Under the pieces are notes generated by a model that worked only from the letters and a program-made list of their open reading frames with translations, was not told the origin of the DNA and searched no databases. A program made the translations under genes and the position numbers. DNA of 64,000 nt, from positions 682,001-746,000 of the forward strand of contig CM022672.1 in the NCBI GenBank assembly GCA_012295275.1, given 5' to 3'. Source of the DNA: Chrysomallon squamiferum. Lineage: Eukaryota > Animalia > Mollusca. This document shows, piece by piece, positions 29,314 to 53,701 of this stretch (position 1 is the stretch's first letter; every line of letters starts with the position of its first letter).

Positions 29314-29757
29314 CAAGGTGTAAATGAGTCAATGAAAGCAAACAGACGAGTATGTTTGAAAAACTACACACTGGAAAACCTCCAGTCAGCCATTACTTCA
29401 GTAATGTCGGGTGATATGACCATAAAAGAAGCCTCACGATTTTATAACATTCCTAAAGCCACATTGTATATAAAACTTCCCCGAGCTCACAAAGAACACA
29501 TTTCTGTGCTGACAACTTCAGAGGAACGGGCACTTGTAGATTCAGCTCTTGAGAAATGCAAGGGTGGAGGCATTCTGAGTAAAGGACAGTTTCTGCTGAA
29601 TGTCAAGAAACTGCTGGATGATGCAGAACGAGAAAACGAAAAGAAACCAGGACACACACCAAGACCAAAACGATTCAAAGACAACCTGCCTGATTATAGC
29701 TGGCTGGCTAACTTCTGCAAGAGAAATCCTCAGATTAAGAACTGTTTTCCAAAATAA
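29314..29757 (+). CDS. Gene C alternative last exon V1: Psq-like HTH + CENP-B-like HTH (147 aa)
   Basis: Acceptor ttatttcag| phase 0; NYTLENLQSAITSV...MTIKEASRFYNIPKATLY...LTTSEERALV...WLANFCKRNP; stop TAA. Confidence 0.85.
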   Translation, partial: QGVNESMKANRRVCLKNYTLENLQSAITSVMSGDMTIKEASRFYNIPKATLYIKLPRAHKEHISVLTTSEERALVDSALEKCKGGGILSKGQFLLNVKKLLDDAERENEKKPGHTPRPKRFKDNLPDYSWLANFCKRNPQIKNCFPK

Positions 29758-30457
29758 CTCAAGTAACTGGATTTTAACAAGCCAAGCTGTGCATTTGAAG
29801 ATAAAATGAGAAACAGTGTGTGAAAGTTATAAGTTGTCTTTATTATTGTATGGATACTTCTTATTTATTATTATTGTTTAATAATTGTTATCATTGTTAT
29901 TTCAAATAGCAGTTGAATGTGCCTTGTACATTATAAATTATTTGATTTAAAATCAGTTAAAGCTATCTGTATTAGGATGATGACCTCAAAAAAATGGCTG
30001 TGTTAGACAGTTACTTCAGGACAAAGATGAAAAAAAGAAAATAAAAAAGTAATAAGAAAAATAAAAAGATAAAAACAAACTATTAGCCATTAATCATAGT
30101 TTTGTTTGTCAAGAACTCCATGTGACATTATCAATATTAGTTATTATAGCTCTAAAGTTTATGCAAATCTAGCTTCTTTTTCTAATGTTTCTTTTTCTTT
30201 TTACATCATACACATCTTGTTTGTTTAGATTTTATAAGTTGTGATAGGAAACTACAGTGTTAAACAGCAAACATCAGATTGAATTATACCACATTACATA
30301 ATTATTTACACCTGTAAGTTTGATGTACATTTTAACTAACAAAATAAATATATTTATAATAACTGTCTGGTAACTTTTTCTAAACTGTTACTTTGCTAAT
30401 ATGTAACATTATAAAGTGTTTCTGCAGGAAGACTTTCCAGTAAATAAACATTGTGAT

Positions 30458-33060
30458 GGGTCATTCCGTGTCAAATCACCCCCAAATTTTTTTTTTAAAC
30501 ACGACCATCTCAGATTTTTTTGAAACTTGGCATACTTGTTGATTGGGATCCCACAGCACCAAATACACTGACATTTTGACCTTCATTATGACCTTGAAAT
30601 TGACTTTGTGGATCACATGACCTTGAGATGACCTTTCTTGAAATTTAATCTCCCACACGTTAACTAAAATATATAAAAGTTTCAGAGGTGTAATATTCCT
30701 TGTTTAGCAGCAGTACACACACATAAATTGCACATCCATGAAAATAACACCTTTTCTGCCATTAACATCAGATTAGCTAAAACCTGAATGACCAATTCCT
30801 GATGTTAGGAATCACCATCTCTCTTGATCACCGAGTAATACATTGTAGGCCTACATGCTATGATCATATGATATCAAACTACTTCCCACATTACCTTCTC
30901 ACAACTTCAACAGTCACAGAATCATTTGGTTACCCACTTCCCCATAGTCTTGCAATTCTAGCATCCGTTGAGAAGATGCAATAGAAGGTGTATCAATGAC
31001 ACAGATGTCCCCTTTGCTAATCCAACAAGTGTCTTCTTCATTTGGCCAGTGAAATAACTTAGGTCTGTGAGGGTGCATGATACAAATGAAGACGTCTGCA
31101 TGCTTTTCTGAAATGTCCTCAACTAGCCCAACCCATGCCTCATTGACATACAGACAAACATAGTTTTACTTCTTAGCTACTCTGGTAACAGTGTCATATC
31201 ATCCTCAGAATCCTGGACAGATACTAGTTCTGGTGGGTCACTGCAGGCTCAGCTTTAGGCATGCATCTTTGACTTAGACACTGGAACTAACCTGTGAAAT
31301 TGATGTGATCCCTTGACCATTTTGGCCACTTGAAACCTCTTGTAGTTCCAACTCATGCTTTGCTATGTGTTCTGGTGTGATGTTGAAAAAGTGAATACCT
31401 GGAATACTCTTGATGCAGAAGTTCATGATAGCTCATTGGTCAGAATTGGGTCTGTGTAGCGATGCTGCAAACTGACCTTTGTTAGCAACCTCTTCACCAT
31501 CCCCCCCAGTTCCATCATGGGCATTTTTCCTGTGGCTTGTTGCAAAAACATTCCATTCAGCTTCCAACCCAAAGTCCTCTTCATGATGGCAATGATGGCT
31601 CAGGTTAATAAAATTGTTCTTATGTTTATACAGTCCAGCACAGCCATCAGTGTCACAAAATAGCGCAGTGAACTGAATTGATCTTGAGACTAGTTTTATC
31701 TCAGGCATAATCACTGTATTACTTTAATATATAGTGGTCATAGTACTAGTAAATGTACCACTATTCTTGTATTAGATGTAATAGTAGTTGAAGTAATAAT
31801 AGTAAAAGTTGGGAGTTGTAGAAGTATCAGTGTTGTAATACCCATAGTAGTAATACTAGTATTATTACTAGTACTGCCAGTAATAATAATGATGATGATG
31901 ATGATAACAATAACAATGATATTAATAATCATAATGACAATTAAAGCAATATTAATGCTACAAGTAGTAATAAAAATCGTGGAAGCAGTCTCATAGATGT
32001 AGTAGTAGTAGTACTAGTGGCAGTAGGTAGTAGGAGATATAATAGTAATGTAGAGGGAGTGTTAGTACAGTTAGTAGTACTAGCAGAAGTAGCAAAATAA
32101 GAAATAGCTGTTGTAGTAGTAACAGTATTTGTGATAATAAAAGTAGCAGTAGTGGCAATGATGGTGACAGGTAATAACAGGAGCCTAGTGGGAGTTATAA
32201 TAGTAATAGCAGTACTAGAAGTAACTACTAGGACATCACTGATAATAGTGTCAGTAGAAGAAGATGTAGTATTAGTAGAAATAGTTAGGAACAAAAGGTG
32301 GGAATAGACAGAGTAGTAGAAGAATTAGTGATAGAAACTTCTAATTGCCATGTGCTCAGTGGGGATTTCATGGAGTTCCTAACATGCCTGAAGCCACACT
32401 TGCTGTTAACCCTTTGGGCCTATTTGTGTAAAACATCTCATGCCATTTGGCATCTTTTCATATCCTTCAGGCACTCCTTCAGATGTCAGGTGGATTTTGA
32501 CTCCAAAGAAGAGTTTTTGGTCTCACAGAAGTGTATATGTGTAGAAAATGTACATTGTAATGCATTGTATCAATCATCCGTGCATTTTTTAAATCTATAT
32601 TGTGGCTAAGATTACACCTCTGAAACTTTTGTATATTTTAGTTAATATGTGGGAGATTAAATTTCAAGAAAGGTCATCTCAAGGTGACATGATCCATAAG
32701 GTTAATTTCAAGGTCATAACAAAGGTCAAACAGTCAGTGTACCCCCAACATTCTCCAAACTGAACAATAATGGCAGATTTGGAATCCTTGTCATATTGCC
32801 TTTTCAACAATACCAATTTTATGAAGATTTGCCCAGTAGTTCCTGAGATATGAGGGTTCAAAGATTGGTGGTCATGCCCATATTGGCCAAAAATCTCAAA
32901 ATTTGGGAGGGAGGGTGGCATATCTCCCACACCACTGGCCCAATTGGCTTAAAATTTTGTATTTGGTGCTGTGGGACCCCTATCAACAAGGATACCTAGT
33001 TTCATAAAAATCGGAAATGGTCAGGTTTAACTCATTGGGTGATTTGACACGGAACGACCC
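30458..33060 (-). mobile_element. Defective Sola2-like DNA transposon, 2603 bp, inserted between V1 and V2
   Basis: Termini gggtcattccgtgtcaaatcaccc / gggtgatttgacacggaacgaccc with long imperfect TIRs, including subterminal blocks ~30570-30700 vs ~32610-32740. 4-bp TSD TGAT at 30454-30457 and 33061-33064. Minus-strand transposase remnant TDGCAGLYKHKNNF...WNVFATSHRKNAHDGTGG. GRG termini and a 4-bp TSD fit Sola2. Confidence 0.8.
30950..31714 (-). pseudogene. Fragmented transposase of the Sola2-like element
   Basis: Catalytic-region motifs lie in ORF 31433-31714, with a C-terminal remnant MHPHRPKLFHWPNEEDTCWI near 31020-31080. Interrupted by stops and frameshifts, and bordered by an (AGT/AAT)-rich low-complexity tract at ~31740-32335. 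Confidence 0.7.
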
Positions 33061-33325
33061 TGATGCACTGGTGAAATATAATATAAAACAAAAGAAGTTC
33101 AGTGTTAATATATTTGGAATTGCACTGATGATAACTGACTTCAGTTCTGAATTAACCTACAAAGAGTTACTGTTTGAGCTCCATTTTAAAAGTGCTTATA
33201 ACAAAAGTTCAGGATGAATATACTGAGGTAAGCTGCTTTATTTTACTAAAGAAAAATGATAAATAGTATTTCCAGTCTTGGTTTAGACAGTCAGACAGTT
33301 TATGTGGTGTACTTTGTTCTTACAG

Positions 33326-33814
33326 CTGGATTCAGCAAACCGAATGTTAATGAGGAGAGTAGGTAGCAAAGGTTGTTACACGTCAGAAAGTTTGAACGCT
33401 GCAGTTCAGGCTGTCATGGAGAAACGGATGAGTGCCAAAGATGCTTCTGCCCACTACAACATTCCACGAGCAACTATTTATGACAAACTGCCTCGACCCA
33501 CCAAACAGCAGGCAAAGACAGCCATTTTGACATCTGCTGAGGAAGAGGAGCTAGCTAACTTCATAATTGACAGACATGAAAGTGGCAGACCTCTCACAAA
33601 GATAGAGGTGCTGAAGAAAGTGAAAATGTTGTGTTACACCAAGTTTGATGAGTCAGGTGATCAGGGGTCAGTCAGATCAACCATACTGCAGAGGATCACA
33701 GAGAAACCTCCTGACTATTTCTGGTTGTCAAACTTTTGTAAAAGACATCCTAGAGTCAATGGTCTCTTTCAGACCAGCAGTCACCTAATGGAAAAGTATG
33801 CAGCAAATGATTAG
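33326..33814 (+). CDS. Gene C alternative last exon V2: double HTH (162 aa)
   Basis: Acceptor ttcttacag| phase 0; YTSESLNAAVQAV...YNIPRATIYDKLP...LTSAEEEELA...WLSNFCKRHP; stop TAG. Confidence 0.85.
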   Translation: MDSANRMLMRRVGSKGCYTSESLNAAVQAVMEKRMSAKDASAHYNIPRATIYDKLPRPTKQQAKTAILTSAEEEELANFIIDRHESGRPLTKIEVLKKVKMLCYTKFDESGDQGSVRSTILQRITEKPPDYFWLSNFCKRHPRVNGLFQTSSHLMEKYAAND

Positions 33815-34757
33815 TTGGTGTGAGAGACCACTGTGCCGGTGTGTTTAAACAAAAAAAATATTTAAATAATCATTTGTTACAGAAAAAGGAGGATCCTTAA
33901 AAATATTACATTCACTGAACAATTTAAAAAAAGTTTGGATTGTTAAAAATACATAATACAAGTTTTATTATGACAGAATTAGTTTTTGTTAGCAACATGA
34001 TGTTCTAAAGGTAACAATTATAAAATAAAGGACCATCAGAAAATAAAAATAATCTTCTTACTATTATTGTTTTTATTTTGTTAAAATAGGCAAACTATTT
34101 AACAGACGTATAATTTGCTCCTAATTTTCATTACTTCTCACAGAAAATGAACAGTGTTTGAAATAATTTAACATTATTATTGCATATTATTGAATAATTA
34201 ATGCTGATAAAAGTGAAAATGTATCTCAGTTATTTCATTTACAGATAGTTAACTGGACATCATACTTAAAATAAAATTATTACATTCAGTAGGTTTGTTT
34301 TGTGTCAAAAATCACATTCTAAATTCAGTGACTGGCAAATATTTTATTTTGTCTACATATCAAATCCAAGGTTGTGGAGTTGCATCATGTTTTTAATCAC
34401 ACATTATTTCTCCATTAAACATGTATTGGAGAGAAACAAACAAGACAATTTATTAGTATTATGAATGGTTCTCACTGGATTTTAAAGTAATATGTAATGG
34501 ATAAAATATTTTAAGTAGGTATTAAATGTTTGTTTAACAACAAATGGTATTTTTCATGAACAAGCAAGGAAATCTATAACATGCAGGAATCTGGAACTGT
34601 GGTTAAGAGTGTTGTGAAGTTGACGTGTGCTGGCTGGAATTAACAGAATGTTTTGCTAGGTCCTGGTGTTTTTAATAAATTCAGTTTGTTGTGTCACATT
34701 CATTCAGTCAGCTCCTGCCAGTCTGTTGACTTTTAAAACAAGTATCCTCTTTTACAG

Positions 34758-35153
34758 GATTCTACACGATTGTTCCCCTCCAATCCTCGATCACGATTCC
34801 AGTACTCTGCGTCTGACTTGGCAGCTGCTACACACGAAGTGCTTACCAAGAAGATGACCATAGTGGAAGCAGCTGAAACATTTAACATTCCCTGTCATGC
34901 CCTCTCAGCCAAACTCCCGCTGATACGACCACGGAGAACAAACAATATTTTAACTGAAGAAGAAGATAATGCACTTGTTGAGATCTTGTTAAAGAGGAGT
35001 CAGCTGGGTGATCCCATGACCAGGTCAGAAGCTTTGATTGAGGTGAAGAATATCATTGAGGGAAGCCCAAGAGAAAAAGGTCTCAAAAGAATGCCAGGAT
35101 TTCATTGGCTAAGGAACTTTCTCAGGAGGCATCCAGATGTAACACTTAAATAG
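34758..35153 (+). CDS. Gene C alternative last exon V3: double HTH (131 aa)
   Basis: Acceptor cttttacag| phase 0 (DSTRLFPS...); YSASDLAAATHEV...FNIPCHALSAKLP...LTEEEDNALV...WLRNFLRRHP; stop TAG. Confidence 0.85.
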   Translation, partial: DSTRLFPSNPRSRFQYSASDLAAATHEVLTKKMTIVEAAETFNIPCHALSAKLPLIRPRRTNNILTEEEDNALVEILLKRSQLGDPMTRSEALIEVKNIIEGSPREKGLKRMPGFHWLRNFLRRHPDVTLK

Positions 35154-36396
35154 ACTGATTGGAAAAATCTTAGAAAATTTGTCTAATTTACTGAATGTTA
35201 GTGATTAAGCATGACAACCTGTATAGATAATTTCAGAAAGTCCTCAAGACATATAAGTAATAAATTAGCAGATAGAACGAATTAGTCTTAGTCAAATAAC
35301 AGAAGATGAATTTTTAGAATTCATTTATCAAAACATTTCTAGTAAACAAAGAAAAATCACTAATGATTCTGGAATGTATTGCTGTGTCCACTGTTTGTGT
35401 TATTTTATTATTTCTGGTTCTAATACATCTTAAACTGTGTCTGATGATGACAGACAGCAGAGAAATGAGACATGTAATAAATGTTTCAGTACAAGATCAT
35501 TGTGAACACAGTTACTCTATAACAGCCTGACTGTATCATTCCAAACTGCGTTCTTTCATTAACTTGTTGTTTTAATTTACATTAGAAAAATACCTAAAAC
35601 ACATCAAATGGATGTTTATTTTTATTTTATGTTTTATTATTTTTTATATATATTTTCAGTTAAAGCTGAGTAAATCTCTCTCTCTATATAAATAAAACCA
35701 AACAGCCAGTAACATAAGAACATTTTGTTCATCTACTGATAGATGCGTAATAAAAATCTTCATGTTCATTCCCTTTTGTGTTTTGTATCTATTTTAATTA
35801 ATTATATATCACAAAATCAATATATATCATATCTTTATTTCTCAAATAGAATGTACTTGTGTTTCAATAAGCTATACAAATAAATGCTGCCACAATTTTG
35901 CTAAAAATATAATTATTTTACAAACAGATACTAACAATTTGAAGCCAGTTCTATGAAAATGTAATAATAAATATACTTGTATGCTTTATGCAGAAAGTAT
36001 CAATTTTATTACATTGTGCATGGATTTCATAAGCTTCAACAGTTAATTACTTGATATTTTAATTTGTATATCTCAGGGTATTTAATTTAGGGGCTTGTGT
36101 AAATTTAAAAGTAACAAAGTACATTACAGTTTTTCAGTTTACAAACCATTTTCTTGATATGTTATGTCAAAGTTTCACTTCCATTGTTTTTCTCTTCGAG
36201 TCTGAATTATATTTTTGGAATAAATTAAGGGAACATGATTATCCTAATAAAAAATAACAAAACTGTATCTGGTTTTGCTCTAATTTCTGTTGTTTTAATT
36301 CTTGTTTTAAATAGAAAATTATATTCTTGAATTAATCCCTTTCAATTTGAAATTATTTTATTTCAGTATTACATAAGAACATATTACACTGGAGGG

Positions 36397-36428
<32 letters not shown>

Positions 36429-36755
36429 AAAAATAAAAATAATAAACAGCCCTTAATAGAATAAATAATGATTTTACCTCTGTTAGATAACAGATGTTTC
36501 CTTTATTATTACTCATTATTATTATCATTCACCTGTATGTTTATGTTCAGAGTAAAAACATATGTCAAAGATATGATTGTATGAAAATCCATGAAGTAGC
36601 AAATTCATACTCATTATGATACAGTACCCACTAAGTGTGCTCTTTCTCACTGTCAATACAAAGAAAACTCTCTCACTTTATGGAGAATGTTGTTATTTTT
36701 ATGTTTAGTTTTGTGTTAAATGTTAGTCACACTGACACTGGTACGTTTGTTTCAG

Positions 36756-37172
36756 AAGAGATACTGCACTGACCCCTCTCAGTTAAGTGTCTTTAAGAAG
36801 TACTCATCGAAGATGATGGAAAATGCTGTCAGAGCAGTGGTGGAAAACCACTGGACTATCTTCAAAGCGAGTTCTGTGTTCCAGGTCCCAAAGTCGACTC
36901 TAAGACGGAAAGTGCCGATAATGCTAGGAACACCAAAAGGGGAGTCTGTCTTGAGCAGGGAGGAGGAGGAGAGTCTGGCTCACCTGATGAGAAGGCGAGC
37001 AGAGGAGAAAAACCCAATGTCAAGACAGGAATTGTTTAGAGAGGTCAAGAGAATCATTGATGCAAATCCAAGACCAAACCACTTCAAGGAAAACATGCCT
37101 GGTTATGGCTGGTTGATTTTCTTCTTGAAACGCAATCCTGATATAAAAGATTGTCTTAAAACAGATAAATGA
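36756..37172 (+). CDS. Gene C alternative last exon V4: double HTH (138 aa)
   Basis: Acceptor tttgtttcag| phase 0; YSSKMMENAVRAV...FQVPKSTLRRK...LSREEEESLA...WLIFFLKRNP; stop TGA followed immediately by AATAAA. Confidence 0.85.
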   Translation, partial: KRYCTDPSQLSVFKKYSSKMMENAVRAVVENHWTIFKASSVFQVPKSTLRRKVPIMLGTPKGESVLSREEEESLAHLMRRRAEEKNPMSRQELFREVKRIIDANPRPNHFKENMPGYGWLIFFLKRNPDIKDCLKTDK

Positions 37173-37910
37173 AATAAAGAAAGATATTTACAAGTAATCC
37201 TGACTTCTTTTGTTGTGAGCTTGGAAATGAAAATGAAATCAATACAAACCTGTTTGTTTCATTGTTGACTTTTGGATTATGTAAATATGTGCGGTATTTC
37301 AAAGTTGTCATGACAGTCAGACAATGGAGTGGTTATGATCCTTGCTCTGAACTTTACTGGATTAAGACGTGTCAGACACAGAGTTAAACACTGGTGATTC
37401 TTAAATTGGCAAGAAGAAAATAAAACTACGTAAACAGAATATTTTTGTAGCTTGTCATTTTGAAGATATTTTTCCTTACCTACATATATAAATTACTGTT
37501 TAATGAAAAAAAAAATAAAAATTTCTCTTTGATAGCCAAATTCATTTGTAGTTGTGTTTTCAATGTAAATAGAAAAAGGATTTATTTGTATAAATATTGT
37601 CTCTAAATTTCAACACTACACACTTTTTTTTTAGGTGACAAAACACTGTGATCTTTGATCAGTCGCTTGATAATTTGTAGTCAGCTTGATAATTTGTAGT
37701 CAGCTAATTAGATGTGATTTTGTAAACAATTCTTGTCTTCAGTTTGTTTCGCATCATCTGTAGTAAGTAAGAACTCTAACAGTTAAGAATTAAGGATAAA
37801 GGAAAACTAACATAATAAATGTTTTCCACCTCTTGTGAATGACATTGTAATGTTACAGCTAACTAAATATTTTTGTTGGTGAAACATTCATACAGATGCC
37901 TCTCTTTCAG

Positions 37911-38339
37911 GATTCCTCTTTGAATTGCAACTGGAGACGCAACTTTAAGCAGTACACTGAGGAAGATATGCAGAATGCTATTAAAGCAGTTCTTGATCAG
38001 AAATGGACAATTCTTAAAGCCAGTCAGGCTTTCAGGGTCCCAGAGACCACGTTGAAGCGCAGACTGCCGTTGATTGGGAAGTGCAATCGTCTGAAGATTC
38101 TGACAAATGAAGAAGAAAACCTGGTTGTTAAACTTATCACAGACAGGGCCAGGGTGGGGTTGCACCTCTCCAGACAGGAACTCTTCAGAGAGGTGAAGAA
38201 AATACTAGATAAGAAACCTACACCAACACACTTCCCAGATAACCTGCCTAGCTATGGATGGCTCATATACTTCTTAAAGCGACACCCAGAGGTGCCCAAG
38301 CACTACTTGAAACCAAAGTGTTCACAGCAGCCAGATTAA
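37911..38339 (+). CDS. Gene C alternative last exon V5: double HTH (142 aa)
   Basis: Acceptor ctctttcag| phase 0, with a second in-frame tacag| before 37896; YTEEDMQNAIKAV...FRVPETTLKRRLP...WLIYFLKRHP; stop TAA. Confidence 0.85.
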   Translation, partial: DSSLNCNWRRNFKQYTEEDMQNAIKAVLDQKWTILKASQAFRVPETTLKRRLPLIGKCNRLKILTNEEENLVVKLITDRARVGLHLSRQELFREVKKILDKKPTPTHFPDNLPSYGWLIYFLKRHPEVPKHYLKPKCSQQPD

Positions 38340-39250
38340 CTCTAAAGTTAACCAGAGAAGTTTTTATAGTTATCATATTAATTGTAGTGATGTTCATGTA
38401 GTTGTCTTTCAAAACTAGTGAAGAGAAAAGCCAATTATTCGATTCTTTCTGTTACTTTGTTTTATCTGAGATGATGACTGGTATCAAAAAGGTAAAAATC
38501 ATCTCAATGACTTTCAAAAACATTTGTGTTTAGTTCATTCTTATTTGTAATATATTTAATCTTTATTTATATTTTAAAAGGATAACAAAAGAATCATCAT
38601 GTATTAATATTAATATTTTTTAAATAATAGAAAAATGGAAATAAAAATTGTATAAAGAGGCTGTATAGGAAATACTTTATTATTATTATTTTTTTTATAC
38701 ACGCCCATTATTTATTTAGCCAGTTCATCACAGATGGTTTATATAATATAAAAAAGAAAGTAGAAGAAGAAGAAAAAAAAAAACCCTCCCCAAAAAAAAA
38801 CATAAAACTTTTAAAAGCACTCAGTGTGTTGGCATAATAATTCCTGAGTTGTATAATCAATGTATAAAATGATGTGTGACATCAAATAAGTGTTAGTAAT
38901 AAAAAACTGAGGTGTCAACATCTGTTGCATATCGAGATTCATCATCTGAATGTGCTGCCAGCTTTGTAAGCTCTAAAAGTTACACATGCCAGGATCATTT
39001 CAGATCTGATTAAAATACTGCCTCCAGTGTTTTCTTGTGAGAAAATGAACCAAGATCTTATTTATTGTATTTCTTGCATACATAAAGCAGTAATGTTCTT
39101 AATTCTTTTTACAATTCAAATTTTATTATTTTATTCGTTGTATATAAATTGCACATTATAATTTCTCTAAATAATATCTTGGGCCTGTTTGGAAAGAATA
39201 TTAATTATACACAACTGCATGTTTGTGTTTGTGTTTGTGTGTCTGCTTGT

Positions 39251-39282
<32 letters not shown>

Positions 39283-39472
39283 TTCTGTTTTCCCTATAGC
39301 TCCTTCTCTGCATGCTTCTAAGTTGTAAGATATTTTACTATTTTAAAGACAAAACTTGAAGGCAGTGATCCAGCATACTATTGTATTTGTAAAGGAATAT
39401 TACCCTGCTTTATCATTCTTGATTTCTTGATTAGCTGAGCAAGTTTCACAGTTGTTGTGGCCTATGTTTCAG

Positions 39473-39815
39473 GATTCAGCAAGTTGTGAGATTCTTCATG
39501 TTTTGGGAAGGTCTAAGTCCTATACAGATGATGATGTAAACAATGCTGTAGTTGCAGTAGTTAATCATAAGTGGTCAGTTCAGCAGGCCAGCAAAGCTTT
39601 CAGTGTTGCGTGTGAGGTGGTCAAGATACTATTCTGACACGGGCAGAGGAGAGACAGCTGGTAGTGTTAATACTGAAGAGAACAAGGTTACCAGTGGTCA
39701 GTAGACAATAAAACTAATAAGTGAAAATCCCAGACCAGACTGTGTGAAAAACTCTGAACCAAGTTTTGACTGGCTTATCAACCCAGAAATAATGAGAGAT
39801 TCTTTGAAATCATCT
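39473..39815 (+). pseudogene. Gene C degenerate alternative exon V6 (frameshifted and partly deleted double HTH)
   Basis: Acceptor tgtttcag| phase 0; YTDDDVNNAVVAVVNHKWSVQQASKAFSV then stop at 39635-39637. Remnants continue in other frames: ILTRAEERQLVVLILKR and KLISENPRPDCVKNSEPSFDWLINP. Confidence 0.75.
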
Positions 39816-40571
39816 TACGTATGTCACCTGATGGCACCTTCCTGTTTGTTAAATGTGGCCTGTTTCCCATTCCAGCAACTGACCTCTTATCATAAGCTGT
39901 ATTACATACTTTCCTGAGAGAAACAGAATTAGATTTACAACTTTCCATAAGCAGCAATAACTAAATATGTGAATAAAATTAATGTACAAATGAGTTGAAG
40001 TTATGTTGCTTGATGAATACTTCTTGTAATTTTGTCTTAAACACTGAGTACATTTTTATAAAATAGTTTCAAGTCCTGATTCTTTTCAGTTGCTGTTATT
40101 ATTTATATATTTGTCTTAGTTGTCTTGTAAACAGCGTAGAGTTGTTTCATACAAATATACAGTATAATATATATCTACCTGTTTACCTTTATGCAAGAAC
40201 ACATACATACATATATATAAACATATATAAGATAATTACATGTATGCATATGGTATACAGACACATCAATATACTTAAATATAGCACAGTATACAAATTT
40301 TAATGATGCAGTCATTATATCAACAACTGGTTATCTTGGTTATCAGATGTATGTGTGTCTTTGCATGTGTGTTTTTATTGTGTGTTTGTGTGTCTGTATT
40401 GTGTGTGTTCGTGTGCGTGCGTGTGAAATATCACTTAGAAAATTGTATCAATCTCTTCAGAAGACTTCACTGTCAGAATTACCAAAATCAGATAGAAAAT
40501 TAATGAGTAGAGCTGTCTTGTAACAAAACAAACATTAATTTGTTTTACACCATACCCATCCTTCCTTGCAG

Positions 40572-40994
40572 GCTGTGTTACAGCTGGTGGAAATTAACCA
40601 TTACAAGAAGTACACCAGAGGCTCACTTGTGGAGGCCGTCACTTCAGTCATAGAAAACAAAATGTCCATTGTAGAAGCTAGCAAGGTTTTCAAAATCCCA
40701 GAGTCCACCATGAAAAGAAAGCTGCCTCTGGTGTATGCACCAGGTAAAAAAACATCACTATTGACCAGGGAGCAGGATGAACAGTTGGCCAACATGATGA
40801 TGAGTAGATTACTGAAAGGAACACCAATGTCTATGACGGAGGTGTGGAAAGAGGTGAAGATCATGCAGGAAACGGAGAGCAAGTCAGATTACATAAAGAA
40901 GCTGGTTCCAGACTGGTTGTGGCTAATTTTCTTTCTCAAACGACACCCATCTTTACCCAAAGATTATTTCAAAAATGACCCAGTTGGGAATTAA
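40572..40994 (+). CDS. Gene C alternative last exon V7: double HTH (140 aa)
   Basis: Acceptor ttccttgcag| phase 0; YTRGSLVEAVTSV...FKIPESTMKRKLP...WLIFFLKRHP; stop TAA. Confidence 0.85.
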   Translation, partial: AVLQLVEINHYKKYTRGSLVEAVTSVIENKMSIVEASKVFKIPESTMKRKLPLVYAPGKKTSLLTREQDEQLANMMMSRLLKGTPMSMTEVWKEVKIMQETESKSDYIKKLVPDWLWLIFFLKRHPSLPKDYFKNDPVGN

Positions 40995-41794
40995 GGCAGT
41001 GTTTGAATTTTCTTCTAGAAATTTGAAAAAAGGTAATTTTGTGTTTGAAACCACATGTAAGATAAAATAATTCACAGTTGAAGAACCATCAAGCAACAGA
41101 ATTGTAATGATTAAAAAAGTAATGAAGGCAGTGATTAGTAAAGAGCAGATTGTTGACAGTGGGAAATGAAATTGATGTCAGTACAGAACAGTATTGTATT
41201 GAGAGTCAGCTGGTTTTCTCAATACTGCACAGATAAAACAGTTTGTTAGTTTTGTTAATTTAATATTTGTGTGTACATACAGAGTCCAGGAAACATTCAA
41301 ATAATTTACTTCTGGTTTGGCATTTTTGTTTTGCCATTGAAAATTCAAATGTAAATGAACATGTACATCCTTCAGCTGTTCTGTTATTTGACTCCATCTG
41401 TTATAAATATTTGTCTTTTTGAGACACTTCGATTTTACAGCTTTTAAATGAGCTTATTAAAAAACCCATAAAGTTATTCTGAAGTTCAGACAAGTTAACT
41501 ATGAACTCTACATCATAAACTATTAGACGTTGTTTCTAAACTGTATAGCTTTACCAATAATTTTTAGGAGACAGTCATATCAGACATTTTAAATTAAACC
41601 TGCAAAGTGTATCTCATTGAAAACAAAGTGAACATCTGTATCTGACATTGTTAGAAGTGTGAGAAGTATTTGTGAATAGAACAATGGGTTACAAAGCACT
41701 TTCTATCTGAGTATTGGCTTCTCAGTGAAAATGAAAGAGACTAATTATTTGTGGTTGATAAGTAGAATATTTACCCTGTGTACGCTTGTTTCAG

Positions 41795-42220
41795 GGGATG
41801 GGCTGGCGTTTTGACAGTAGAAGTAGATATCGCAGCTACAACCAGCACGACATGCAGAGAGCCATCAGAGCCGTTATAGAAGACAGATGTTCCATTAGCA
41901 GTGCGAGCAGACAGTACAGTGTGCCAGCGACAACGCTGAAGCGTAAATTGCCCGTTGTACGCAGTCGCCGTCAGCACAGAACACTGCTGACTGAGGAGCA
42001 GGAGAGCGAGCTGGTGAAGCTGATGTTGCAAAATCTGCACAGTGGTCGTCCCCTGTCTAAGAGTGAAGTGTGTGGCGAGGCCAAGAAACTGCTAGATTTA
42101 TACTCTCCACGAGCCTCTCTCTTCAAAGTGAGCGCACCAGACTGGTCGTGGCTTGTCTACTTTCTCAAACGAAATCCTCAGATACCTAGAGATTACTTCT
42201 TGTCAGCCAAAAAACACTGA
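41795..42220 (+). CDS. Gene C alternative last exon V8: double HTH (141 aa)
   Basis: Acceptor cttgtttcag| phase 0; YNQHDMQRAIRAV...YSVPATTLKRKLP...LTEEQESELV...WLVYFLKRNP; stop TGA. Confidence 0.85.
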   Translation, partial: GMGWRFDSRSRYRSYNQHDMQRAIRAVIEDRCSISSASRQYSVPATTLKRKLPVVRSRRQHRTLLTEEQESELVKLMLQNLHSGRPLSKSEVCGEAKKLLDLYSPRASLFKVSAPDWSWLVYFLKRNPQIPRDYFLSAKKH

Positions 42221-42661
42221 TTGTTACTGTAATCAGCCATGTAAATCTGTCTGAAAACAGCAATACAGCATGTTAACTTTTCTTTTATTTATTTAAATAT
42301 ATTGTACATGTTAAATGTTACATGCAGAGCCATTTTCATCTCTCTAGCATTGGTCCAGTATTAATGCTGGTAAGGCAGAATATATTCTTTAGCATTTAAG
42401 ATTGTCATACGGAATACTTAAGATTCAAACCAGCTCTGATGAGTTATCTGACATTTGTTTGCCCCAATACAACAAAATACTATTTTCAAAAATAAAATTA
42501 CATATTTTCGTATGATAATCTGAAGTATAATAACAAAAAACTATGTGTTTCACATCCGTTAATAATAAAGTTTATTTATATAATGCATTTCACGTTTTAT
42601 GTTGTTTGTTGTTCACTTCTATGAATTTTATCAGTAATAATGATGCATTATTCTTCAAGGA

Positions 42662-42775
<114 letters not shown>

Positions 42776-43219: not shown

Positions 43220-43306
<87 letters not shown>

Positions 43307-43454
43307 CATCAATATGTCTATTCAGGGTTGCTGAAAACTTGCATAAGTAAAATCGTATATTGAAATAACAACAACAACAACAACTTACAAAAGGCAAAGA
43401 AGAGTACAAAGTAAGAAACATGGTAGTTTACAGTGGTCTATTTATTTCTTACAG

Positions 43455-43862
43455 ATGTACCTAGCACAAATGACACAAGACAGATCTGACACCAATCTGA
43501 AAGCCGCGATACATGCTGTCGTGGAAGAAAATATATCTATTCACGCAGCCAGCATCAGATTCAACGTATCAGAATCCAAATTAAAGAGACGTGTACCTAT
43601 GCTGGGAAGCAGACGAGGGGCTGCGGTTCTCACAGAACAGGAGGAAAAAACACTAGTACAGATGTTAATTGACCGGAAGCAGAGTGGTTACCCTATGTCA
43701 ATGGTGGAGCTGTACGCAGAAGTGAAGAAGATGATAGATGTCAACCCACGACCTAACAAATGGAAAGATAATCAACCCAGTTATGGCTGGCTTGTTTACT
43801 TTTTAAAAAGAAATCCTGACTTACCGAAAGACATTTTTAGAAAGAAGTTTCACCACTTGTGA
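43455..43862 (+). CDS. Gene C alternative last exon V9: double HTH (135 aa)
   Basis: Acceptor tttcttacag|ATG phase 0; NLKAAIHAV...FNVSESKLKRRVP...LTEQEEKTLV...WLVYFLKRNP; stop TGA. Confidence 0.85.
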   Translation: MYLAQMTQDRSDTNLKAAIHAVVEENISIHAASIRFNVSESKLKRRVPMLGSRRGAAVLTEQEEKTLVQMLIDRKQSGYPMSMVELYAEVKKMIDVNPRPNKWKDNQPSYGWLVYFLKRNPDLPKDIFRKKFHHL

Positions 43863-44286: not shown

Positions 44287-44383
<97 letters not shown>

Positions 44384-45021: not shown

Positions 45022-45438
45022 GACGTGTTGGAGAGATCTCGCCGCCCCTCCCAGTACAAATGTTACACAGAAGAGCACATGAAACAGGCCATAGATGCCG
45101 TAGTGAACAAACAGATGAATCTTAGAAAAGCCAGCGAACTATTCCACATTCCAGAAAGCACACTGGAGTCCAAGCTGCCTCTCATACCGAGCTCCACTGG
45201 AAATGCTCCAGTCCTCAACAAGAGAGAGGAAGCTGAACTTGCCAACCTAATCGTGACGAGATACCAACAAGGCAAACCTCTGACTCGCCTGGAGATTCTC
45301 ACTGAAGCAAAGAAAGTGATCGAGGCGACGGGCAGACCGAATCCGTTCAGGAACAACTGTCCTGGCTATCGCTGGCTGGGCAGGTTTCTTAGGAGAAATC
45401 CATGCGTCCAAGATGCGTTTCTAAAGAGGAAATCGTGA
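45022..45438 (+). CDS. Gene C alternative last exon V10: double HTH (138 aa)
   Basis: Acceptor tgttttgtag| phase 0; YTEEHMKQAIDAV...FHIPESTLESKLP...WLGRFLRRNP; stop TGA. Confidence 0.85.
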   Translation, partial: DVLERSRRPSQYKCYTEEHMKQAIDAVVNKQMNLRKASELFHIPESTLESKLPLIPSSTGNAPVLNKREEAELANLIVTRYQQGKPLTRLEILTEAKKVIEATGRPNPFRNNCPGYRWLGRFLRRNPCVQDAFLKRKS

Positions 45439-45714
45439 CACGCCAGTGTTGGTTATTACGACAATTACACCTTTAATTGGTTTAAAATAGAGAATCACCT
45501 GTATTAGGAGCGAATCTACGACATAACCTCAGCAGAAAAACGTCCAAAATGAATTTTAAATTTGAGAGGGGATTTTAAATACAGTTAATAGTTTAGTTTT
45601 TAATTTTAAATTGTGAATAAAATAAAACAACTACAACAAAAAAATAATAATGATTAAAATAAAACATATAAAAGCAATTAGTTCATATCTGCTTAATGTT
45701 GACCTGATTCTCAG

Positions 45715-45754
<40 letters not shown>

Positions 45755-46974: not shown

Positions 46975-49612
46975 AAGTATAGTACTATGCGCTGCACAGT
47001 GGTGTATACTGTACTCGGTAATGTACTGTAATATGTAGCACAGTGGTGTATAGTATACTCGGTAATGTACTGTAATATGTAGCACAGTGGGGTATAGTTT
47101 ACTCGGTAATATACTGTAATATGTAGCACAGTGGCGTATTGAGTACTCGGTAATATACTATAATATGTAGCACAGTGATGTATACTGTACTCGGTAATAT
47201 ACTTTAATATGTAGCACAGTGGTGTATAGTATACTCGGTAATATACTATAATATGTAGCACAGTGGCGTATAGTGTACTCGGTAATGTACTGTAATATGT
47301 AGTATACAGTTGTGTATAGTGTACTCGGTAATGTACTGTAATATGTAGTATACAGTTGTGTATAGTGTACTCGGTAATGTACTGTAATATGTAGCACAGT
47401 AGTGTACGGTGAACTCGGTAATGTACTGTAATATGTAGCACAGTGGCGTATAGTGTACTCGGTAAATACTGTACTATGTAAGTATAGTGGTGTACGTACC
47501 GGTAATGTACTGTAAATGGTGTATATGTACAGTAATATGGTGTACACGGTAGTGTATGGTGAACTCGGTAATATACTATAATATGTAGCACAGTGGTTAT
47601 AGTGTACTCGGTAATGTACTGTAATATGTAGTATACAGTGGTGTATAGGTTACTCGGTAATGTACTGTAATATGTAGTACACAGTGGTGTATAGTGTACT
47701 CGGTAATGTACTGTAATATGTAGTATACAGTGGTGTATGGTGTACTCGGTAATGTACTGTAATATGTAGTACACAGTGGTGTATAGGTTACTCGGTAATG
47801 TACTGTAATATGTAGTATACAGTTGTGTATAGTGTACTCGGTAATGTACTGTAATATGTAGCACACAGTAGTGTATGGTGAACTCGGTAATATACTATAA
47901 TATGTAGCACACTGGTGTATAGGTTACTCGGTAATGTACTGTAATATGTGTATACACAGTGGTGTATAGGTTACTCGGTAATGTACTGTAATATGTAGTA
48001 CACAGTGGTGTATAGTGTACTCGGTAATGTACTGTAATATGTAGCACACAGTAGTGTATGGTGAACTCGGTAATATACTATAATATGTAGCACAGTGGTT
48101 ATAGTGTACTCGGTAATGTACTGTAATATGTAGTACACAGTCGTGTATAGTGTACTCGGTAATGTACTGTAATATGTAGCACACAGTGGTGTATAGGTTA
48201 CTCGGTAATGTACTGTAATATGTAGCATATGTACTCAGTACTGTAACGGTAGTGTATGGTGAACTCGGTAATGTACTATAATATGTAGTACACAGTGGTG
48301 TATAGTGTACTCGGTAATGTACTGTAATATGTAGTACACAGTGGTGTATAGTGTACTCGGTAATGTACTGTAATATGTAGCACACAGTAGTGTATGGTGA
48401 ACTCGGTAATATACTATAATATGTAGCACAGTGGTGTATAGGTTACTCGGTAATGTACTGTAATATGTAGTACACAGTGGTGTATAGGTTACTCGGTAAT
48501 GTGGTATAGGTTACTCGGTAATGTACTGTAATATGTAGTACACAGTGGTGTATAGTGTACTCGGTAATGTACTGTAATATGTAGTACACAGTGGTGTATA
48601 GTGTACTCGGTAATGTACTGTAATATGTAGTACACAGTGGTGTATAGGTTACTCGGTAATGTACTGTAATATGTAGTACACAGTGGTGTATAGGTTACTC
48701 GGTAATGTACTGTAATATGTAGTACACAGTGGTGTATAGGTTACTCGGTAATGTACTGTAATATGTAGTACACAGTGGTGTATAGGTTACTCGGTAATGT
48801 ACTGTAATATGTAGTACACAGTGGTGTATAGGTTACTCGGTAATGTACTGTAATATGTAGTATACAGTTGTGTAGTACACAGTGGTGTAGGTTACTCGGT
48901 AATGTACTGTAATATGTAGTACACAGTGGTGTATAGGTTACTCGGTAATGTACTGTAATATGTAGTACACAGTGGTGTATAGTGTTACTCGGTAATGTAC
49001 TGTAATATGTAGTACACAGTGGTGTATAGTGTACTCGGTAATGTACTGTAATATGTAGTACACAGTGGTGTATAGTGTACTCGGTAATGTACTGTAATAT
49101 GTAGCACAGTAGTTTATAGTATACTCGGTAATATACTGTAATATGTAGCACACTGGTGTATACTGTTCTCGGTAATGTACTGTAATATGTAGTATACAGT
49201 GATGTATACTGTATTCGGTAATGTACTGTAATATGTAGCACACAGTGTTGTATAGTATACTCGGTAATATACTGTAATATGTAGCACACTGGTGTATACT
49301 GTACTCGGTAATGTACTGTAATATGTAGTATACAGTGATGTATACTGTACTCGATAATGTCCTGTAATATGTAGCACACAGTGGTGTATAGTATACTCGG
49401 TAATATACTGTAATTTGTAGCACACTCGTGTATACTGTACTCGGTAATGTACTGTAATATGTAGCACTGTAGTTTATAGTATACTCGGTAATATACTGTA
49501 ATATGTAGCACACTGGTGTATACTGTACTCGGTAATGTACTGTAATATGTAGTATACAGTGATGTATACTGTACTCGGTAATGTACTGTAATATGTAGCA
49601 CACAGTGGTGTG
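46975..49612. repeat. Tandem minisatellite, 44-46-bp unit, roughly 55-60 copies
   Basis: Unit ctcggtaatgtactgtaatatgtag(ta)cacagtggtgtatag(tg/gt)ta; ctcgg anchors are 44 bp (47014/47058) or 46 bp (48744/48790) apart. It explains all overlapping Y/T/H-rich ORFs. Confidence 0.95.
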
Positions 49613-50398
49613 ATGAAGCTGGTAATACACACTCGTATTCTCAGTTACCTTTGTCTGTCTTCACGGAGGTGAAGCTGCTAGACCAGAGGTAAATTTGTTA
49701 GACTCATGCTGATCTTCTTCAGTTTATTCAGTTTCATATATATTGCAAGCGCACGCTCGCGCGTTTGTATGTGTGTGTGTGTGTGTGTGTGTGCGTGTGC
49801 GTGTGCTTATGCCTGTGCCTGTGTCTGTGCCTCTTCGGTGCAGACAGTGATTCTGTCTCTGAATTAATAAAATTTAACCAACATTACTAATGGCTGAACG
49901 AATCTATTTTTGTTAATTCAGTTAGAAGCAGAATCGGGTTTTCTTCTTTATAAAGTTGGTTAGAGGGGATTATCAACAAGATGCAGTCATGAGGCAAAAC
50001 GGCAACATTTGTTTGTTTTTTTCTTTTAAGGTTGTCGCGTTTTCTTGATTATCTTTGTTTCTGTAGCCTAGCTGGGCCTGGATAATTTATATACATTGTG
50101 TATGGAGTCAGTGGTAGGAGATAGGTAATTTCTTCTGTATACTGGGATTCCTGTCCGCCATTTCCTATGCAAGAGTCTGTGTAGCATATTCACTGTAGCA
50201 GAGAATAGTTTTAAAATGTAATAATTCGTTGTCTTTTATTCGAATAAACAGTACTGATACAGTAAAGAGATAATAAATAAATAAATAAATAAATTTAAAA
50301 AAAGCCTAGAGAAAAAACCAGGTTACAAACGATCAGTATTCAATAAAAATAGAAATGTTCTTGACAGCAAACAGTGATAGTGGGTTTTTTCGTTTCAG

Positions 50399-50791
50399 AC
50401 TATGAGGACTAAACGATACAGCGACGAGGATTTGAGTGCGGCCATCACGGCAATCTGTAACCGAACTTTGACTACAGTACAGGCGTGCAGAACGTTCAAC
50501 ATACCTCGCAGTACAATTCTCATGAAATTACCTCTGATGTCCAATCCTAAATCATATTCGTTTCTGTCCGCCCAAGAGGAAAGCAATCTCGCCCACTTCT
50601 TTGTAGACAAATGTAAGAACGGAAATTACATCACTAAAGCTGACATCGTGGCGAAATTGGATGAAATACTGTTGCCGTCTGGAAGGCAAAATCCGTTCAG
50701 CGCTGGACGACGTATGTACGGGTGGTTGAGATGTTTCTTCAGGCGACATCCAGAAGTGCCCAAAAAGAATTTCGTTGGTGTCAGCGTTTGA
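50399..50791 (+). CDS. Gene C alternative last exon V11: double HTH (130 aa)
   Basis: Acceptor ttcgtttcag| phase 0; YSDEDLSAAITAI...FNIPRSTILMKLP...LSAQEESNLA...WLRCFFRRHP; stop TGA. Confidence 0.85.
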   Translation, partial: TMRTKRYSDEDLSAAITAICNRTLTTVQACRTFNIPRSTILMKLPLMSNPKSYSFLSAQEESNLAHFFVDKCKNGNYITKADIVAKLDEILLPSGRQNPFSAGRRMYGWLRCFFRRHPEVPKKNFVGVSV

Positions 50792-51475
50792 TAACGTTTG
50801 TGTAGTAAAAGGGGATATAAGTAAACAACCACCCAACAAGCAACCATTAAAAAACAATTAAAAAAAACAATTAAAAACCTACAAAACACAAAACAAATAA
50901 AAACAACAATGAACAAATAAATAAAATAACTCCTCACAGAAAGATAATCAGTTAGAAAAAAAGACAGAACACAACTACTGATTTTAATTATTCATGTCTG
51001 AGTGAAGTAGTCTTTGGTATCAAGTGTTCACCTGACAGCTAAAGAAAACTGAGAAATAACTGTTTGTGTCCAGGTTACTGTCCGAATGAACAATTAATTA
51101 AATTCGTCTATTTTTTTCTTACTGTTGACTGAGTTGTGTTACGTTCAGATGGAAGATGATGGTTAAAGATGATATTTTTACCACACAGGTTTTATTTTCG
51201 ATTATTTCTGCCTCCACTGTTTGTCATTTTGTTTTAGATCTTTTTTCTCTAAAGTTTGTCGTAATGTCTTAATTCCTTGATCCAGCGTTTTGCAATAACA
51301 GAGTTTACCCTAATCATTGTCATGATATTCCAGACATGTTTGTCTTTTTATCCAGTTTCTATTCATATTTCACATTCGTGTCTCAAGTTTTTATATATTA
51401 TAATATACACAATACTTGTGTACGGTGTTTTGCGTAATTTCTGTTAACTTAGATACTCGCTTTGTTGTTTTTCAG

Positions 51476-51886
51476 GAAGAGTTTCGACAAAAACGACGCG
51501 CACACTATAAGTGTTACACAGACACTAATCTCAGACAGGCCATAGACGCCGTGCTTAACAAAACAATGAGCATTCGTAAAGCCAGCGATGTATTCAGAAT
51601 TCCCGGCAGTACCTTGGAGGCAAAGCTTCCTGTCATCTCGGGAATATCGAGAAATGCCACGAGTCTGTCTAAAGATGAGGAAGCTGCTTTGGCTCGCCTG
51701 GTCATAGAGCGTCACGACAGCGGGTCCCCGCTCACTCGGATGCAGATACGATTCGAAGCTCAGAAGCTGATCGAAGCCAGCGGTAGAACTAGTTCAGCAC
51801 GTAACACGTGTCCCACTTACCGCTGGCTGGCCAAATTTCTGAGACGAAATCCACAAGTTAGAGAAGAGTTTATTAAAAAGTCATGA
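51476..51886 (+). CDS. Gene C alternative last exon V12: double HTH (136 aa)
   Basis: Acceptor gtttttcag| phase 0; YTDTNLRQAIDAV...FRIPGSTLEAKLP...WLAKFLRRNP; stop TGA; AATAAA at 51922. Confidence 0.85.
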   Translation, partial: EEFRQKRRAHYKCYTDTNLRQAIDAVLNKTMSIRKASDVFRIPGSTLEAKLPVISGISRNATSLSKDEEAALARLVIERHDSGSPLTRMQIRFEAQKLIEASGRTSSARNTCPTYRWLAKFLRRNPQVREEFIKKS

Positions 51887-51971
51887 TAAACTCTACTGTA
51901 ACGCTGAACAACTATTAGTTTAATAAATCGTTCTACGCTTTTGTGCATTAAAGATATCTTTAAACGTTGTT

Positions 51972-51973
<2 letters not shown>

Positions 51974-52052
<79 letters not shown>

Positions 52053-52066
52053 TGTTTGTGTGTGTG
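51974..52066. repeat. (GT)n microsatellite
   Basis: Near-perfect GT run downstream of V12; shorter runs near 39255-39282, 45721-45753, 49770-49805. Confidence 0.9.
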
Positions 52067-53278
52067 TTTATATTTGAGAGAGAAACAAAAAACTTCATGA
52101 AGAATAATACAGGATTATTAATATAACATTCACAGAAATGAACGACAGTCAACATAAAACGTGTAATGGTAGCGAAATGCATTATATAAATATATTTTAT
52201 TAATGGATGTGAAACACATATGTTTGCGTTATTATACTTCAGATTATCATACGAAAGTCTGTAATTTTATTTTTGAAAGTGAAATAAAATAGTATTTTGT
52301 TGTTTTTCGAGTCATGTTGGTTTTAGGGAAAATCAAATATCAAACTGGTTTGAATCATAAGTATCCCATATAACGATTTTAGGCGTTACGCTATAAAATA
52401 TATTTGGTCTCAACTAGACGAATATTGGACAACGCTAAAGTGAAGAAGCTCCGTTCATTTTAGCCAGTCTTGGGACATTGGCGAAGTCCTGTACAGTGTC
52501 ACAGCTGGGATCACTGCAATAACTGGGATAAGTTTAAAAATGAAAATATAACAAAGAAAATGTCTAAATGTGTGGAGACCGCCATTTTTTCAGTAATGTT
52601 GATATCTTTGCTTACATGATGTGTTTATTGATCTGCCATTGTTTATAGAATTGAGTTAATTCTGTAAATAATTTCTACACCTAGTGAAACAGTTTCATTA
52701 TCTTTTTAAAGTTGACCGCTAATTATCAAGATTCAGTAAAGTAAATATATTTATTATTTATACAGCTGAAGAATTAATAGTTTGCTTAAAACATTTTTAG
52801 CTCAGGTTTTGACAATTTTGTACACGTATAATTTAGCTTACTACATGAACAGGAGAAGTGAAACAACTCTGCACTAATTTCAAAATTGATGATGTTTATT
52901 TTCGTTAACCCTTTGTTCGTATGACATTGCGACATGTTTTCGTACCTAGCATTTAAATAGCTTAGAAAAAAAATAATATTAATATATATATATTAAAAAC
53001 AATGAGATCTACTGGCCTTTCATCATTTCCTTTATTTTATTATATTTAAATTTTATTTCTTTAAATTGAATTGTAGAATACATGTAATGAAATCTGAAAA
53101 GAGGAAAACATGAACAAATAATTTTTGCACTCTATTAATTCTGAATAGACACGGAACAGCTTGCGAAACGTATTCAGTTTCCAATACATTAAACATTAAT
53201 CGTTTTCTTTTACTTATTTCTTTTTTCTTTTATTATTATTGTTGATGTTGTTATTATCATCATTATTTTTATTTTCAG

Positions 53279-53701
53279 ACGACAAAAAAGGACCGGCCAT
53301 CGTTTTATAAAAGCTATTCGCCACAGGACATGGAGAGAGCCATACGAGACGTGCTTGAACTCAAGATGACGATTAACCAGTCAGCTCAGAAATACCGAAT
53401 TCCAGTAAGCACTCTGCACCAGAATCTGCCTCTCATAAAACAGAACCGTGGGCCCTGCCCCATCCTCTCTCCAGAGGAGGAGACAACTCTAGCTGCACAT
53501 ATTATCCAACAACACAAAAAGGGGGCGCCACTGAGTCGAGTTGAAATCCTGGCCGAAGTGAAACAAATCTTGGACAGAAACAAGCGAGTATCTCCATTCA
53601 AAGACAATTTACCTCAGTATGGCTGGTTGAAAGGATTCGTCAAGCGCAACCCACAAGTACTACAGAGTCACATGTGTAACAGAAAATACCATGTACAGTA
53701 A
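53279..53701 (+). CDS. Gene C alternative last exon V13: double HTH (140 aa)
   Basis: Acceptor tattttcag| phase 0 (TTKKDRPSFYKSYSPQDMERAIRDV); YRIPVSTLHQNLP...LSPEEETTLA...WLKGFVKRNP; stop TAA. Confidence 0.85.
   Translation, partial: TTKKDRPSFYKSYSPQDMERAIRDVLELKMTINQSAQKYRIPVSTLHQNLPLIKQNRGPCPILSPEEETTLAAHIIQQHKKGAPLSRVEILAEVKQILDRNKRVSPFKDNLPQYGWLKGFVKRNPQVLQSHMCNRKYHVQ

Follow-up and report, generated by a model that had tools for sequence, protein, structure and literature searches.

A gene of Chrysomallon squamiferum with a probable array of alternative last exons encoding pogo-type DNA-binding modules

Introduction

In the Drosophila genes lola and mod(mdg4), constant 5′ exons are joined in a single phase to a last exon taken from a large set of alternatives that encode different DNA-binding domains; 20 are given for lola, 17 of them with zinc fingers, and at least 30 isoforms, mostly of the FLYWCH type, for mod(mdg4) (PMC10551640; PMC11426971); TTK-type BTB domains were not found in Mollusca according to the available text of one of them (PMC11426971). 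In another set of genes, including KRABINER, SETMAR and PGBD3-CSB, a host regulatory domain is followed by a spliced-on 3′ exon that encodes the DNA-binding part of a transposase, and capture by means of a splice acceptor located immediately 5′ of the transposase frame is documented (bioRxiv 10.1101/2020.05.07.082677). Here we describe a gene from the mollusc Chrysomallon squamiferum, located in a stretch of 64,000 nucleotides (assembly GCA_012295275.1, contig CM022672.1, positions 682,001 to 746,000 of the forward strand; hereafter the window), which is followed by 13 copies of a small coding unit, termed cassettes. It is probable that two constant exons of this host gene are spliced to at least two, and probably to all twelve, intact last exons, and that their common module, a pair of Psq and CENP-B-type domains, was captured once from a pogo-like transposase, separated from the catalytic domain and copied in tandem.

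The layout of the host gene corresponds to that of lola and mod(mdg4), with constant 5′ exons and one of many last exons in a single phase. In contrast to these genes, its constant exons contain no BTB domain according to Pfam, its endings are pogo-type Psq and CENP-B pairs instead of C2H2 or FLYWCH domains (C2H2 endings occur in sister genes), its cassettes all lie in cis on one strand whereas lola and mod(mdg4) also use trans-splicing, and the layout is repeated in at least 15 paralogous genes of the gastropod Gigantopelta aegis. The host gene thus resembles lola and mod(mdg4) in design but is built on a scaffold other than BTB, and it is not a member of that group.

As in host-transposase fusions, a transposase-derived exon is spliced in frame to host exons, but the fusions covered by the accessible part of their description have one captured exon per gene, occur in tetrapods and often involve KRAB, whereas here the module is apparently present 13-fold and diversified (bioRxiv 10.1101/2020.05.07.082677). 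With pogo/Tigger transposases and domesticated CENP-B/HTH-Psq factors (PF05225, PF03221, PF03184) the cassettes share the same bipartite helix-turn-helix (HTH) module and motif; unlike active pogo/Tigger elements, they have neither a DDE_1 domain nor pairs of terminal inverted repeats (TIRs). Separate CENPB and HTH-Psq expansions are reported for Aplysia, Biomphalaria, Octopus and Nautilus in the available text of a survey of seven molluscs, which does not include G. aegis; these expansions are reported as families of genes (PMC10027918), as opposed to the alternative exons of one gene seen here. A literature search found no description of the locus or of its family, most subscription papers and all supplements being outside the search.

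Results and Discussion

The cassette array

The window is animal DNA with a G + C content of about 30% (A + T 70%). The motif WL..F.[KR]R[HN]P occurs in 12 open frames on the + strand from 29284 to 53701, each with a stop codon 5–20 residues past the motif; the initial annotation, made from the DNA letters alone, had given about 4–20 residues. An additional 13th copy, from 39473 to about 39830, is frameshifted (Table 1), so that 12 of the 13 frames are open, as had been noted, despite pairwise identities among the window cassettes of only 24–54% (median 32%). Pfam detected HTH_psq in all 12 intact cassettes and HTH_Tnp_Tc5 in 10 of them (E up to 0.1), with 11 and four cassettes, respectively, exceeding the curated cut-off. 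A profile of the cassettes recovered all intact cassettes from the window, 12 in number, as well as a portion of the frameshifted copy, and matches LCoR by sequence (1.4e-6), and a structure model of cassette 5 shows two three-helix domains (mean predicted local distance difference test score, pLDDT, 90.6).

The absence of a catalytic domain and of transposon ends, as initially described, was confirmed. Pfam found no DDE family in the cassettes, and a profile of 27 DDE regions had no match in the six frames of the window, the DNA between the cassettes included (best E 0.6). No TIR pair was found around any of the 13 cassettes, apart from two stray 12-mers; target-site duplications were not searched separately, as there were no element ends to serve as anchors. 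Each cassette thus is a pair of Psq and CENP-B-type HTH domains without DDE domain or TIRs. The flanks of the cassettes have no alignable DNA in common except one dispersed repeat. Polyadenylation hexamers follow all 12 stops, which carries little weight in DNA so rich in A + T.

An acceptor context common to several cassettes, TACG[CT]TTGTTTCAG, had also been proposed. It is matched exactly at 36742 and 41781, as stated, and only there; the remaining acceptors cited (33310, 45004, 51455) are merely pyrimidine-rich. The best acceptor pair among the 13, with 12 of 14 letters identical, lies within chance (p = 0.14 by column permutation), and the motif was dropped as evidence of shared ancestry.

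The host gene and its RNA

The host gene starts approximately 8 kb upstream of the cassette array, and its two constant exons, when joined, form 312 open codons up to the phase-0 donor. All 13 cassette acceptors, which were chosen by eye, are in phase 0. In a leave-one-out analysis, an acceptor matrix blind to frame selected a phase-0 AG in 12 of the 13 cassettes and the site chosen by eye in 10, with 23–58% of the nearby AGs in phase 0; the single miss was at 45022, where the acceptor is TAG.

RNA contigs of four runs from one study were compared with positions 33100–42600, a region that contains seven of the acceptors. Two contigs start with 27–28 non-fitting letters, at 40570 (run X2) and 34756 (run X4), and these letters, which are the end of constant exon 2, occur once in the window, at 22441. 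The match of these loose ends demonstrates splices from 22469 to 40572 and from 22469 to 34758, so that junctions were seen at two of the seven acceptors compared and in two of the four runs. The other 10 loose ends were unrelated to the constant exon, and five coding differences in the RNA contigs (three synonymous, two not) were too few for use. One gene uses at least two of the cassettes, and likely all twelve intact ones, as alternative last exons.

A possible 14th ending of a different kind lies upstream of the array at 25896–26430. It would encode a basic, helical peptide of 85 amino acids that by eye resembles the ends of the G. aegis proteins P0035 and P0037; its first exon piece matched no Pfam family.

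In Dscam-type arrays, one intron element is complementary to a site before most of the alternative exons. A scan for such docking sites, restricted to ungapped helices, gave a best median pairing of 22 in the 150 nucleotides before the acceptors, compared with 21.3 ± 0.8 (maximum 23) in 15 shuffles; unlike in docking/selector arrays, pairing thus was at shuffle level. Further upstream, values of 25 (shuffle maximum 25) and 24 (shuffle maximum 23) were obtained at low-complexity sites, and these values were treated as an effect of base composition. Because docking-site pairing was not found by these scans, competition between acceptors and polyadenylation sites was taken as the default mechanism of choice, and since every cassette is located 3′ of the constant exons and in the same orientation, cis-splicing would suffice.

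The ratio of observed to expected CpG climbs along positions 20000–54000 from about 0.15–0.3 to 0.7–1.0, and among the exons it rises abruptly between 40994 and 41795 (0.21–0.43 in exons up to 40994, 0.66–1.18 in exons from 41795). Gene-body methylation in the germline may therefore be confined to the proximal part, with the distal endings presumably being rarer in use.

Orthologous cassettes and selection

A search with constant exon 1 returned 13 hits, 11 of which are RefSeq isoforms of one G. aegis gene, LOC121383439 (uncharacterized, from automatic annotation; the set comprises X1–X12, of which X7 was not returned by the searches). These isoforms have their first 322 residues in common and then continue into divergent endings. 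The constant part is 71% identical between the window and LOC121383439, with 72 identities in the first 75 residues. Ten of the endings each match one window cassette, and X9 is the best match for both 45022 and 51476; the identity of orthologous cassettes is 48–79%, compared with the paralogue median of 32%. The window array differs from that of G. aegis in having two X9-like cassettes and one broken cassette.

The cassette profile search yielded 6405 hits, and all results drawn from it rest on the best 150 of these. Orthologues or members of the cassette clade were found among them in further assemblies, and seven such proteins are 68–87% identical to single G. aegis endings. One protein from another assembly, P0137, is intact and is the best match to the broken cassette 6, and the loss of this cassette therefore is likely to be recent. 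P0142 falls into the cassette clade described below without a close counterpart in the window or in G. aegis (best 42%). Scans of metagenomes with the cassette-pair pattern (596 hits) and the N-terminal domain (108 hits) confirmed no relative, and atlas searches gave only clusters without a name, at 0.90 or lower. As peltospirid splits are dated to 40–116 million years in two studies (PMC7736800; PMC7895826), the age of the array would amount to tens of millions of years or more.

The two recognition helices were located from the cassette model and the general structure of HTH domains. Their identity in the 11 orthologue pairs is 91% and 94%, as opposed to 51% and 60% among paralogues; the corresponding ranges for the other helices are 56–73% and 31–38%. 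The closest paralogue pair in the window has 0.38 nonsynonymous (dN) and 1.66 synonymous (dS) substitutions per site. The conservation of orthologues together with these values argues for purifying selection on the captured part. Since the recognition helices are kept per orthologue, each cassette appears to retain its own reading surface, and distinct DNA targets are predicted for each; every last exon thus encodes a different predicted DNA-binding domain.

Origin of the module

Of 57 long relatives, picked by length from the best 150 hits, 33 bear DDE_1 in addition to the same Psq/CENP-B-type module, on account of which the cassette module classifies as pogo-type. The dataset for phylogenetic analysis consisted of full-length modules (146 of 261 stretches) without the duplicate P0007, to which 12 window and 11 G. 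aegis cassettes were added, giving 169 rows and 126 columns; 30 rows are cassettes. In the 169-row tree, 28 of these 30 formed one clade (support 96 in the Shimodaira–Hasegawa-like approximate likelihood-ratio test). When all 30 were constrained to group together in a dataset of 79 rows, the resulting tree was 42.8 log-likelihood units above the free quick tree (p = 0.92 in the approximately unbiased test), a result that is no proof of full monophyly of the cassettes but does not reject it. The monophyly expected in the initial annotation thus stands for 28 rows in the free trees, from which two rows depart, and is not rejected for all 30.

A proline directly after the recognition helix of the Psq domain, at the start of the linker between the two domains, is present in all 30 cassette rows, in none of the 33 DDE rows and in one of the 106 others. 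The linker spans 14–16 residues in the cassettes (29 of 30 measured) and 16–20 residues in the DDE rows (26 of 33 measured). The proline appears to be a derived character that the cassettes share and that is absent from the 33 DDE-transposase modules. One origin followed by tandem copying is supported as the simplest reading, because of the tree, the linker proline, the one-to-one orthologues and the absence of DDE and TIR remnants. The initial interpretation of a single capture with local duplication under purifying selection is thereby upheld, with its acceptor-motif argument removed and the host gene of the cassettes added.

Several observations weigh against this interpretation, however. 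Cassette 11 and its G. aegis counterpart X11 branched outside the cassette clade on a long branch in all three free trees, one of which, from a subset of 80 rows under a mixture model, gave support of 87 for the 28-row clade. The trees rest on 126 columns, with outgroups from other genomes that were picked by the cassette profile. Synonymous sites are near saturation in all 66 paralogue pairs of the window. The top Foldseek matches of the cassette 5 model, the Psq domain of LCoR (E 0.12) and CENP-B on DNA (E 0.22), are both weak. As for splicing, the acceptor matrix was trained on the remaining hand-picked acceptors, the junctions concern two of 13 cassettes with one low-depth contig each from a single study, and unspliced RNA contigs span the acceptors at 33326, 34758, 37911 and 40572; the latter may represent nascent RNA, long 3′ untranslated regions or DNA.

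In one alternative the layout is the same, but the first cassette came second-hand from a domesticated Psq/CENP-B host gene and not directly from a transposon. No DDE-bearing row was sister to the cassettes in the trees. Many DDE-less, host-like proteins carry the module, some of them in several copies (P0121–P0123, with the module repeated within one chain) or in fusion with other domains (P0153, with a SAM domain of NAB), and the nearest row outside the cassettes, P0156 with 272 amino acids, has a different C-terminus. However, the module together with DDE_1 is the commonest architecture among the long relatives, direct capture is documented in the accessible part of the source cited above (bioRxiv 10.1101/2020.05.07.082677), and none of the 149 new hits of the cassette profile, drawn from its best 150, contains the N-terminal domain of the host gene. 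We therefore regard a second-hand origin as improbable.

A further alternative, in which related pogo elements were captured independently at least twice in the same long intron, for instance cassette 11 apart from the others, would account for the position of cassette 11 and X11 among transposase rows in the free trees. In sister genes the endings belong to kinds that are unrelated to one another (C2H2, single Psq, BEN and DUF3504), and repeated capture therefore does occur in the family. Yet cassette 11 has the linker proline, a linker of 15 residues and the same truncation point as the other cassettes, its branch is long, and the tree that unites all 30 rows scores better, as described above, which makes independent captures within this array very unlikely. 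The least credible alternative, which regards the cassettes either as remains of transposons in decay or as small independent genes and their splicing as noise, could draw on the unspliced contigs, on the one broken copy and on a methionine ahead of the Psq helix in seven of 12 frames, but is largely refuted by 12 frames kept open at such low identity, the one-to-one orthologues with near-invariant recognition helices, the lack of a methionine ahead of the domain in the other five frames, the exact RNA junctions and the 11 annotated G. aegis isoforms.

Table 1. Positions of the host gene, its cassettes and other features in the window.
Feature	Positions	Strand	Remarks
Constant coding exon 1	21070..21671	+	ATG at 21077; 75-amino-acid N-terminal domain at 21077-21301; phase-1 donor
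Constant coding exon 2	22129..22469	+	Ends in the phase-0 donor common to the cassettes; RNA loose ends bear its last letters
Cassette 1	29314..29757	+	71% to G. aegis X2; acceptor predicted, in-phase AG at 29278 scores higher
Cassette 2	33326..33814	+	59% to G. aegis X1
Cassette 3	34758..35153	+	71% to G. aegis X12; splice from 22469 in RNA (run X4)
Cassette 4	36756..37172	+	79% to G. aegis X8
Cassette 5	37911..38339	+	76% to G. aegis X5; model pLDDT 90.6
Cassette 6	39473..39830	+	Frameshifted, partly deleted; phase-0 acceptor retained; best match intact P0137
Cassette 7	40572..40994	+	48% to G. aegis X4; splice from 22469 in RNA (run X2)
Cassette 8	41795..42220	+	75% to G. aegis X3
Cassette 9	43455..43862	+	78% to G. 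aegis X10
Cassette 10	45022..45438	+	TAG acceptor; 60% to G. aegis X9; 54% to cassette 12, its sister
Cassette 11	50399..50791	+	68% to G. aegis X11; longest branch, outside clade in free trees
Cassette 12	51476..51886	+	61% to G. aegis X9; groups with X9 and P0128
Cassette 13	53279..53701	+	67% to G. aegis X6
Possible 14th ending, different kind	25896..26430	+	Putative exons 25896-26080 and from 26359; phase-0 AG, open spliced frame
Paralogue 1, same N-terminal domain	10031..17462	-	Head-to-head with host gene; single-ending orthologue P0012
Paralogue 2, constant exons	1918..3679	-	G. aegis orthologue with many zinc-finger endings
Decayed DNA transposon	30458..33060	.	Between cassettes 1 and 2; TIRs, TGAT target duplication; holds no cassette

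The N-terminal domain and its gene family

Neither the 75-residue N-terminal domain nor the constant exons as a whole matched a Pfam family, BTB included. The structure model of the domain is weak (pLDDT 68.6), and none of the 66 matches returned for this low-confidence model by a fold search of the PDB had an E value up to 0.001. The domain is nevertheless widespread in G. aegis, where it was found in at least 151 sequences that form at least 19 groups by their common front; at least 15 of these groups have 2–19 distinct C-termini, amounting to at least 150 endings overall, and all of these counts are lower bounds since they derive from the best 120 of 140 hits and from up to 15 members per cluster. 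In all 14 groups inspected for this feature, the last residue of the common front is Q, K or E, as is expected for phase-0 donors. In four Haliotis species the N-terminal domain is combined with DUF3504 or C2H2 ends. Word-based searches for the domain named no further taxa, which is weak evidence of absence.

Two paralogues are located in the window itself. The start codons of paralogue 1 and of the host gene are 3.6 kb apart, with a small CpG-richer patch near 18001–18300, and the zinc-finger endings of paralogue 2 are likely to lie beyond the left edge of the window. In another G. aegis gene, LOC121383032 (P0097–P0104), several isoforms have the beginning of a BEN-like ending in common and differ only in its last helix, which suggests that alternative exons are used at a second level, within a single domain.

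Other elements in the window

The decayed transposon between cassettes 1 and 2, which the initial annotation had missed along with the constant exons, has 24-bp terminal repeats at 96% identity and is flanked by TGAT at either end. Additional inverted blocks measure 73 and 134 bp, and a disrupted frame on the minus strand contains a catalytic motif of Sola-like appearance, for which there was no library match; a Pfam match to PcF within it was weak, below the cut-off and dismissed as chance. Being unrelated to the cassettes and holding none of them, it was rejected as their source. Two inverted repeat copies at 42335–42680 and 52076–52447 (72% identity over 379 columns), which end at a microsatellite, flank cassettes 9–12; they may form a duplex in the pre-mRNA or simply represent insertions. 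A tandem array of 57 copies of a 46-bp unit (81% matches) occupies positions 46995–49611 between cassettes 10 and 11. Beyond the cassettes, an ankyrin-repeat gene on the opposite strand (57150–59564) converges on the end of the array, followed by diverged tandem repeats at 61328–62427.

Function and evolution

According to the scenario favored here, the DNA-binding module of a pogo-like transposase would have entered the host gene in a single capture, been cut off from the catalytic domain, duplicated in tandem within the gene and kept under selection. Each mRNA would take one acceptor and end at the polyadenylation site of the respective exon, the ending probably being chosen by competition between splice sites and polyadenylation during cis-splicing. 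The resulting isoforms may be transcription factors with different DNA targets, and their common N-terminal domain is likely to serve protein contacts, as BTB does in lola. A more far-reaching proposal, which we consider possible rather than probable, is that this domain is the gastropod counterpart of KRAB, ZAD or TTK-BTB, i.e., a common effector module behind which DNA readers of transposon origin are gathered and multiplied in arrays of alternative last exons (pogo-type Psq/CENP-B pairs here, DUF3504, BEN and C2H2 in sister genes); some twenty clustered genes would then give rise to 150 or more transcription factors, and the isoforms of the host gene would read sites resembling pogo ends across the genome.

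The locus links transposase capture and lola-style choice of last exons, which were previously known apart, in a lineage in which no lola-type BTB was found, and it points to repeated independent invention of genes with one scaffold and many DNA readers. Cassettes that are conserved one-to-one and differ in their recognition helices offer a ready series for studying how a transposase DNA-binding module shifts its target, and the host gene provides a non-insect case for studying how a single last exon is selected from a large set. As the members of the family carry unrelated automatic RefSeq names, most of the diversity of regulators encoded at these loci escapes counts of genes.

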